Source: Lama guanicoe
Lineage: Eukaryota
Length of the DNA: 64,000 nucleotides
Assembly: GCA_013239625.1 (NCBI GenBank)
Contig: MU053810.1
Location: 558,001-622,000 of the forward strand
Direction: 5' to 3'
Numbering within the stretch: the first letter of the stretch is position 1; every line of letters starts with the position of its first letter. This document shows positions 15,337-17,148 of this stretch, in pieces. The translations under genes were made by a program, and so were the position numbers. Below the pieces are notes generated by a model. That model had not been told where the DNA came from. It saw only the letters and a program-made list of their open reading frames with translations, and made no database searches.

Positions 15337-15420
15337 CTGCACCTGCTGCGCGGGGAGGAGCAGGACGTAACCCTGCCTTCCAGGAGCAAAACGTCTCTGA
15401 GCTTGTTCCTGAACAAGCGG
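15337..15420 (-). other. Putative antisense exon C (84 nt) inside the last NUDT5 intron
   Basis: cccctgtcttacag acceptor and CAG|gtaagt donor; same phase, no stop. Confidence 0.4.
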
Positions 15421-15963
15421 CTGTAAGACAGGGGGCCGAGTGGCAGTCTGATGGCCTGAGGAAAACAGGCGTTCTCATGAAAGCCCCTGTGGTCAGTTTC
15501 TGAGACCTCATTCTTGATGGTAAGGACGATTCCAGTGTGTCCTGCGCTGTGGAACATGTTAACCTGCATGTGGAACGTGTATCCCCTGAGGAGGAGAAAA
15601 TGCGGGAAGCGCCATCCCTGTGTGGGTGGAGAGTAGCCAAGCCCTGGAGTCAGCTATAAATGAAATAACAATTGAATCCATTAACTTACGGCCTTGCTGT
15701 TTTAAGGCATAAAGTCATCATTTTACACATGCGCTCTTCGTCCTTGTCCCATACTGGAAGTGTAACCATGCTCTTAGATCCTTTATTCTTCCACTGAAGT
15801 AAGATCCTTGAAGGCAGCAAATGTCCTGTTCATCCCTGTATGACCAGCGGTTAGCTCAGGAATTGGTGCACAGTAGCTGCTCAGTAAACACTGATTGAGC
15901 GAGAAGGGCATGATTAGCTGGTGTCAGCTTCGTTATCTGACTTGTCCCCTTTATGTCCTCCAG

Positions 15964-16073
15964 CTCTGATGGCTGAAGAACAGCTGACAGTGGACGCCAG
16001 AGTCTATTCCTACGCCCTGGCGCTGAAACACGCAAACACGAAGCCATTTGAAGTGCCCTTCCTGAAGTTTTAA
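15964..16073 (+). CDS. NUDT5: NUDT5 last coding exon
   Basis: (A)[35 protein letters not shown] then TAA at 16071-16073. Confidence 0.97.
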
Positions 16074-16183
16074 GGCCAAAGGACAGTGGCTATGTTTTTA
16101 TACACAGAACCACCAGGCCTCCTTCACTAAGACTTCGTATTCAGCTTAGTCTTAATGTAGATTTGAAATTAGCTTTTTCATAA

Positions 16184-16189
16184 AATAAA
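16184..16189 (+). terminator. Candidate NUDT5 polyadenylation signal AATAAA (ATTAAA also at 16274-16279)
   Basis: Hexamer 110 nt after the stop codon. Confidence 0.6.
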
Positions 16190-16755
16190 AGCAACATAGA
16201 ATGCATGTCGTAGTATGGAATTGTAATTACAGGGAGGTTGTAGCCTTCGTTTAAATGCTAAGCTACAGCTAATATTAAAGAACATAAATGCATGTATGTT
16301 TAATCCAGCTTTAAAAAACAAAACACAAAAAACTCAGCTGTTACTTTTGTGATCTAGTCCAGAATACAGTATTTCTATAGGAAAATAGCCCTGAATTGCA
16401 AATTAGGTTAACTATTTCCACCACCCTCCTCCAAAAAAAAAAAAAATAGCGAGGTGTGCAAGTAACTGTTGCCATTAGTTGTTTTTTTTAAAGACAGGCC
16501 TACAGGGACTTTCTTGGCCTCTCCTAATTGAATTACCCACTATATGGAATTAACCTATGTAGCGAGGGTATAAAGTGGACAATAACATTTGCGATAAGCA
16601 AGTGTTTCCAGTTAGCGAGGGTCCTTACAGTCAGCTGACTACGGGAGGGTGACCATCTCTTAGAAAAACGGTTGTTGGTTAAGAGGCTAATGAAAAGACA
16701 AAGCCCGTCCCCCAAGCACGTGTATATACTTTAGAATCTCATTTCCTGTCCTTAC

Positions 16756-16776
16756 CTCAAAGAGTACTTGAAAATT
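16756..16776 (-). other. Putative alternative or antisense microexon B (21 nt)
   Basis: tttggtttttag|AATTTTCAAGTACTCTTTGAG|gtaagg; same phase, no stop. Confidence 0.45.
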
Positions 16777-16992
16777 CTAAAAACCAAATCCATAGGAATA
16801 AGGTTTACGTGATGGTTTACGTGATGTGGGGCATCGTCTTGGTGTTAAACCATGGTACAGCCACATAGCACGTATCGGAAACCCAATACAGTTGTTTTTA
16901 AAGGGAAAAAAAAGGGATTGTGGGGGGCTCACGCTGTGCCTAAAACCCCATCCTCCTCAGGGGTCCACCAGCATTACTGGCCGTTTCCTTAC

Positions 16993-17148
16993 CTCTTGAG
17001 CTTGGCGCTTCTGTGGACTTCTGTGGCCTCCAGCAGCTCCAGGACTACTGCCTTTTCGGTGTGGCCCCGAGCAGAAGTCTCTAGATGGTTCTCATTGGCC
17101 ATGCCTCTGTCATGCTTCCAGCCCTGGATCCAGGGGTTAGCCAGGCCC
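16993..17148 (-). other. Putative alternative or antisense exon A (156 nt) downstream of SEC61A2
   Basis: ctgattctctctggctcag acceptor and AG|gtaagg donor; open in the phase left by SEC61A2 exon 11. Confidence 0.5.

Follow-up and report, generated by a model that had tools for sequence, protein, structure and literature searches.

Candidate cassette exons of SEC61A2 read-through transcripts antisense to NUDT5 in a guanaco genome

In conjoined genes, as described in the available portions of Prakash et al. (2010, PMC2953495), the upstream gene commonly has its last exon skipped, and figures of 46% are given for novel intergenic or intronic exons, 18% for predicted decay targets and 16% for in-frame chimeras. 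The locus examined here differs from the genes described in those portions in having a whole antisense gene between the two partners, and in being known from genomic sequence alone. Internal and first exons derived from long terminal repeats (LTRs) are likewise a described class, set out for ERVL-MaLR co-option in the part of Franke et al. (2017, PMC5538554) available to us. One of the candidate exons below resembles that class in that an old repeat may have given an exon boundary, but the identity of the repeat is only suggestive here.

The closest described systems are predicted models of SEC61A2 itself. Proteins of Rhinopithecus (XP_017742158.1, here P0145) and chimpanzee (XP_016818124.1, P0138, and XP_063636501.1, P0139) leave the gene at the exon 11 donor, skip exon 12 and acquire a short hydrophilic tail encoded antisense in or next to NUDT5, as the candidate chain would, but the exons they use are different ones, with guanaco orthologs at other positions (Table 1). 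A gibbon model (XP_030675119.1, P0196) runs from exon 11 through a novel exon antisense to NUDT5 and then into CDC123, by way of a 5' UTR acceptor that is also present in the guanaco; unlike the chain, it uses an ape exon as its bridge, and the same entry here would meet a stop after 5 codons. A different sequence in place of the coding part of exon 12, following exon 11, is also annotated in alpaca (XP_031532233.1, P0007), camel (P0122), whales, elephant seal and rats, in isoforms that, unlike the chain, consist of a single terminal exon with no NUDT5 overlap.

Human SEC61A2 has 14 GENCODE transcripts according to the supplements of PMC8609283, which give isoform counts only, and almost all published data concern SEC61A1 (PMC11884146, available in part). 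A search of the literature for SEC61A2 with NUDT5, CDC123, splicing or read-through, extending to few subscription papers, returned nothing on the exons considered here.

Here we describe three candidate exons, A, B and C, that lie downstream of SEC61A2 in the guanaco and keep the reading frame left by its exon 11. We read them as cassette exons of minor, lineage-restricted SEC61A2 read-through transcripts with a non-functional product, a reading to which we give a probability of about 0.5.

Candidate exons downstream of SEC61A2

The window, by which we mean the whole 64,000-nucleotide stretch of Lama guanicoe DNA that was analyzed (G000:C1724:558001-622000), carries on its minus strand the 3' part of DHTKD1 together with SEC61A2, and on its plus strand NUDT5, while exon 1 of CDC123 lies on the minus strand about 3.4 kb before window base 1. 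The donor of SEC61A2 exon 11 is the common starting point of all alternative 3' ends of this gene. A preliminary description of the locus had proposed three minus-strand segments of 156, 21 and 84 nt, with AG before and AG/GTAAG at the end of each, that are stop-free in the phase left by exon 11; the sequence bears out all of these statements, together with the presence of an ATG at 17102 in a good context. The coordinates of these and other features are collected in Table 1.

Table 1. Features in and around the SEC61A2-NUDT5 interval, numbered from the first base of the window; scores are weight-matrix splice scores.
Feature	Position	Strand	Remarks
SEC61A2 exon 11	21829..21905	-	77 nt, phase-2 end; located by tblastn with SEC61A2 proteins
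SEC61A2 exon 12, coding part	19399..19585	-	last 62 residues, hydrophobic; replaced in the candidate chain
Alternative acceptor in SEC61A2 3' UTR with 99-codon tail	19005..19302	-	score 15.8, highest in 3000-22000, against 13.0 for exon 12
SEC61A2 poly(A)-signal-like hexamers	18501..19052	-	AATAAA at 19052, 18550, 18535 and 18514; ATTAAA at 18501
Fourth candidate cassette, SEC61A2 intron 11	21575..21595	-	21 nt, symmetric, stop-free; acceptor 10.5, donor 8.9
Candidate exon A	16993..17148	-	156 nt; acceptor 8.9, donor 11.7
Weak similarity to old dispersed repeat	16880..17165	-	approximate extent; from genome matches
Candidate exon B	16756..16776	-	21 nt; weak acceptor 1.4, donor 11.7
Candidate exon C	15337..15420	-	84 nt, inside NUDT5 last intron; acceptor 8.6, donor 12.5
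Longer candidate exon C	15337..15585	-	249 nt, same frame open; stronger acceptor 11.2
NUDT5 last exon	15964 to about 16189-16200	+	stop 16071-16073; first AATAAA 16184
Ortholog of Rhinopithecus P0145 terminal-exon coding part	16127..16180	-	antisense to NUDT5 3' UTR; by alignment
Ortholog of exon joined to exon 11 in chimpanzee and gibbon models	~9867..9990	-	in NUDT5 intron; by P0138 alignment
Possible terminal exon (candidate)	12691..13234	-	acceptor 13234 (10.6), stop after 14 codons, AATAAA at 12749 and 12691

A weight matrix built from 22 acceptors and 20 donors that lie in the window was used to score splice sites, and boundaries of the canonical AG/GT type with usable strength are present on all three candidates. 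The donors of A, B and C all rank in the top 0.1% of GT sites (0.08%, 0.08% and 0.01%, respectively), and the acceptors are good for A and C (top 2-2.5% of AG sites) and weak for B (top 20%). Because the acceptor of B scores much as does the real acceptor of CDC123 exon 2 (1.3; the weakest training acceptor has 1.8), it is weak yet still possible. Two further cassettes of this kind were seen: the one in intron 11 begins 233 nt past exon 11, and another symmetric open candidate lies beyond C at 15148-14990 on the minus strand (159 nt, acceptor 10.5, donor 8.9).

Such segments could be pseudo-exons: motifs that look like splice sites, clustered by chance, at which splicing occurs never or almost never. 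The donor heptamer is no more frequent in the window than expected (12 seen against 10.3), random placement puts three on one strand within 1657 nt in 18% of cases, and the acceptors could have been picked to fit the frame; moreover, four or five poly(A) signals are situated upstream, among the SEC61A2 hexamers (Table 1) that transcription reading through into the chain must first pass. The frames are harder to account for in this way. Of the 37 other such donors in 264 kb, 3 have an exon that is stop-free in frame and whose acceptor is no weaker than the weakest one here; the same test was passed by 26 of 219 strong donors (12%), both counts coming from an earlier matrix in which 2 of the 22 training acceptors were mis-set. 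For at least three cassettes to pass within 6.5 kb the Poisson probability lies between 3e-6 and 3e-5; the value is post hoc, the pattern having been picked afterwards out of very many windows. The segments thus exceed what chance usually gives not in their clustering, which is unremarkable, but in the rarity of three in-frame cassettes (post hoc P ~1e-5). Taken with the strong donors, these cassette statistics argue that the candidate sites are usable, and primate read-through models annotated at the locus also speak against pseudo-exons, an explanation that we regard as doubtful although deserving of some weight.

Codon use was compared with that of stop-free GC-matched stretches, using a small model under which 9 of 23 true exons reach 0.05 when one gene at a time is left out. 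Frame-specific, coding-like use was found in A (p=0.030), B (p=0.022) and the 249-nt form of C (p=0.040), whereas the 84-nt form gave no coding signal (p=0.43), so that two of the three segments as originally delimited carry the bias, a further point against pseudo-exons. The intron 11 cassette is not coding-like (p=0.91), and the value for the cassette at 15148-14990 is not significant (p=0.16). A non-functional product predicts neither three symmetric open exons nor codon bias; these two properties therefore count against the reading that we prefer, form the main evidence against it and keep the coding alternatives alive.

Relation to NUDT5 and to annotated SEC61A2 ends

The segments had been placed antisense through the 3' end of NUDT5. 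That description holds for C, which lies in the last intron of NUDT5 and is the only one of the three certain to overlap its transcription unit, and is uncertain for A and B, which lie beyond the NUDT5 stop codon and first AATAAA. None of the three overlaps a NUDT5 exon, and the last NUDT5 exon sits inside the intron between B and C. A natural antisense could not act by mRNA pairing, since once spliced the chain has no sequence in common with NUDT5 exons and mature NUDT5 mRNA would offer it nothing complementary unless the UTR reaches later signals (17940, 17976); a longer NUDT5 3' UTR (AATAAA 17940) would change the overlap for A and B. Interference between converging polymerases would be the only antisense mechanism left.

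Two observations concern NUDT5 itself. Two metagenome contigs (L002 and L003) that came up in a scan for mammalian DNA at its last exon were set aside, having matched only the intronic part of the query. The NUDT5 exons joined across 12508-13819 (plus strand) are in frame, and a microexon may lie between them; human NUDT5 presumably has about three residues more between the corresponding exons, and one simple pattern search for a microexon in 12508-13819 found none.

Alternative ends of SEC61A2 were surveyed in a sample of 190 proteins, made up of the best 120 of 720 matches to exon 10 and 70 cluster relatives. Three large SEC61A2 clusters are represented in it by 15 of 367, 15 of 143 and 15 of 118 members, so an annotated isoform with the chain could be hidden in them. 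Among the 190 proteins listed, 27 leave the canonical end after exon 11, four of them as truncations; the remaining 23 have alternative tails, 13 by way of an acceptor in the 3' UTR (19302 in the guanaco) and 10 of other kinds. Exons A, B and C encode none of these 23 tails, as expected of pseudo-exons, and the camelid alternative isoforms among those listed, four of four, use 19302 rather than the A-B-C chain. Thirteen of the annotated proteins listed have the 19302 end; they come from camelids, whales, elephant seal and rats, and their open tails run to about 60-110 residues. The alpaca isoform (P0007) has a tail that agrees with 19307-19008 at 99%. As an isoform that drops the last helices, the 19302 end is better supported than the A-B-C chain. 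The 19302-end tail sequences show frame shifts between mammalian orders.

The other 10 tails were compared with 8000-21828 by frameshift-aware alignment, with 60 shuffles each. Four, from Rhinopithecus, chimpanzee, cat and rat, were placed with no shuffle as good (0/60), placements of rat P0132 (1/60) and gibbon P0196 (2/60) were borderline, and the tails of equids, razorbill, eagle and goshawk (4 of 10) had no placement in that interval. The cat tail (P0048) maps to about 20820-20720 and the rat tail (P0134) to 19302. In the ortholog of the Rhinopithecus terminal exon the guanaco has AT in place of the acceptor AG, as well as a 1-nt shift, and this missing acceptor implies splice-site turnover. 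The exon of the chimpanzee tail recurs in the gibbon model, which continues, out of frame, into orthologs of CDC123 exon 1 and exon 2 (E 6e-26 and 5e-4). Beside the ortholog of the in-frame exon inserted in cat P0048 (minus strand), we observed a stretch, 20379-20664, with a 69% identical copy elsewhere.

An alternative 3' end of SEC61A2 across NUDT5, which the preliminary description had mentioned for the human gene, is thus indeed annotated, in predicted primate models and from exon 11. For an isoform that uses the exons proposed here, the same comparison upholds splicing from exon 11 antisense to NUDT5, as annotated in primates, and offers nothing for A, B and C themselves, given their absence from the 23 tails listed. 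For primates, annotation already contains predicted models that read through from exon 11 across NUDT5, and the exons used differ between lineages.

Conservation and repeat similarity of exon A

The frame of exon A was used in a full HMMER scan over 1.84 billion cluster representatives (50% clusters), in which two proteins were matched. One (P0188) is repeat-rich, with 18 residues matched, and was set aside as chance. The other (P0189) is a frame of 92 residues found in Logan records, and 4 near-identical proteins share its cluster (P0189-P0193). Its best genome match is this locus (E 2.7e-5; next 1.1), and the alignment spans 17181-16901, that is, exon A with both flanks, at a score of 185 against at most 64 for shuffles. 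From these alignments P0189 is probably an ortholog of the exon A region.

If so, neither the splice sites, the ATG nor the frame of the proposed exon is shared. P0189 has Met (ATG) codons at the positions of both the acceptor AG and the donor GT, and because Met has one codon the absence of the two sites can be read from the protein; since the reading is from the protein alone, a nearby shifted site is possible. It has Val at the proposed start ATG, and indels of about 3 and about 5 nt shift its frame. In exon A 25 of 49 residues are identical, no higher a share than the 17 of 40 found in its flanks (p=0.52). The similarity agrees with neutral divergence at a nucleotide identity of about 70% and does not rise above the neutral level. 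Conservation of splice sites and frame across species, to which the preliminary description had looked for support, is therefore not borne out for exon A in the one ortholog family that bears on it. The absent sites, which pseudo-exons would also explain, fit gain in camelids and loss elsewhere alike. Together with the different targets to which exon 11 is joined in different lineages, their absence in P0189 supports lineage-restricted read-through as the preferred reading.

Other searches were without result within their scope. Exon A was found in none of 29 candidates among proteins of 106-2000 residues and the exon C frame in neither of 2 candidates among proteins of 58-186 residues, both by a weak search that needs shared words; Pfam gave no match (0/3), Rfam had none in 13000-17300, and the ESM Atlas gave no usable match. 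A search of sequencing runs with exon A gave at least 24 runs, with no RNA run among those listed.

Exon A may itself lie inside an old repeat remnant, as several genome comparisons suggest. A 20-mer of exon A occurs at 3 further places in the genome, against 0 for a control, and two of these align more widely; one of the two (L031) matches exon A with E 5e-4 even with the seed masked, and another, found without the seed (L057), with E 0.016. A two-motif pattern from exon A has 20 matches, against 0 in a control, but with both motifs masked the likeness disappears, the exon A locus matching 0 of 19 other loci. Five loci (L025-L029) have no DNA similarity to exon A, and another (L032), used as a genome query, returned only itself. 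The likeness, which is suggestive only, may be to an MLT1-type LTR of the ERVL-MaLR group.

A repeat origin opens the way to a separate small gene or long non-coding RNA, transcribed from an LTR promoter with A as its first exon and, if coding, starting at the ATG at 17102, as the preliminary description had also considered. The context of that ATG is good, and LTRs of the ERVL type are known to provide promoters, donors and AUGs (PMC5538554, in the part available). Nevertheless, A has a good acceptor, which is typical of an internal exon, the stretch 17330-17100 is without CpG or TATA-like motif, the ATG is Val in P0189, and the LTR identity is tentative. No stand-alone protein with the A peptide exists among the 1.84 billion representatives save the ortholog P0189 and the chance match P0188, and none from a camelid was found in the 50% cluster representatives or among proteins of 106-2000 residues. 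On this evidence a separate gene seems improbable.

Possible continuations of the chain

Since the chain ends in a donor it is incomplete and must continue downstream, where 22 acceptors score at least 9.5. Among these, the possible terminal exon that begins at 13234 (Table 1) would provide both a stop and poly(A) signals, and the tail would be hydrophilic, with a best 19-residue hydropathy of 0.15-0.53 against 1.89 for exon 12. These features, together with the exon 11 phase kept by all segments and the frame-specific codon bias in A, B and the long form of C, are what would be looked for in a functional, lineage-restricted Sec61-alpha2 isoform with a hydrophilic tail of at least about 100 residues (ending, for example, in the 13234 exon), perhaps a channel-dead or regulatory subunit. 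A ten-helix channel without its last helices is, however, expected to be destabilized. The sites and frame are not conserved in P0189, and Pfam (0/3), the search for exon C homologs and the Atlas are equally silent; the camelid annotations among those listed all use another end (4/4). We consider a functional isoform distinctly unlikely.

Before window base 1 lies CDC123, whose 5' UTR acceptor (G000:C1724:554648, minus strand) is strong in the guanaco (10.8) and corresponds to the entry used by the gibbon SEC61A2-to-CDC123 model; from the chain it leads to a stop 5 codons on. The acceptor of CDC123 exon 2 (G000:C1724:549470, minus strand) has the low score given above. With 74 coding nt, exon 1 of CDC123 ends in phase 2, and hence a junction to exon 2 would keep the frame from exon 11 and from every donor of the chain alike. 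The chain could on these grounds be a frame-keeping bridge of a conjoined SEC61A2-CDC123 transcript that encodes an in-frame fusion protein, and the gibbon model already links the two genes. Yet that model enters CDC123 through the 5' UTR and out of frame, the stronger of the two guanaco acceptors is the one that leads to the early stop, the phase match has a fair probability of arising by chance, and 24 kb with several strong acceptors lie in between. No paper found, in a search that took in few subscription papers, names a SEC61A2-CDC123 fusion. An in-frame fusion is accordingly very improbable. A broader coding proposal, that camelids recruited the repeat remnant and two intronic or intergenic pieces into a translated Sec61-alpha2 variant that lacks the last helices and may extend, still in frame, past the whole antisense NUDT5 into CDC123, we hold to be unlikely. 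Were it true, a core translocon subunit would have gained a C-terminus de novo, in a paralog whose specific biology has been little studied (PMC11884146, available in part), and with an in-frame CDC123 join a fragment of a membrane channel would be coupled to a translation-factor assembly protein.

Under the reading that we prefer, minor read-through with a non-functional product, exon 12 would at times be skipped or its poly(A) signals missed, and transcription would continue antisense across NUDT5 toward CDC123. The exon 11 donor would then join whichever strong downstream splice sites a given lineage has; in this camelid the joined exons would be A, B and C, with A perhaps having arisen within the old repeat remnant. 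Transcripts that finish in a terminal exon such as that at 13234 would encode Sec61-alpha2 without its last hydrophobic helices, a product that would probably be degraded, and those that enter CDC123 by its 5' UTR acceptor, with the early stop, would be expected to undergo nonsense-mediated decay. An effect, if there is any, would fall on the output of SEC61A2, or on NUDT5 through overlapping transcription rather than through mRNA pairing. The guanaco would then provide a further case of read-through specific to a lineage, at a locus already annotated with models of this kind, and would serve mainly as an example of exon turnover in a tail-to-tail gene pair with run-on across a whole antisense gene.

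One minor observation concerns the region of the candidate terminal exon. A stretch at 12972-13416 has an 86% identical copy in the same orientation about 19 kb away, in CDC123 intron 1 (G000:C1724:551752-552185), and the candidate acceptor at 13234 falls inside this duplicated stretch.
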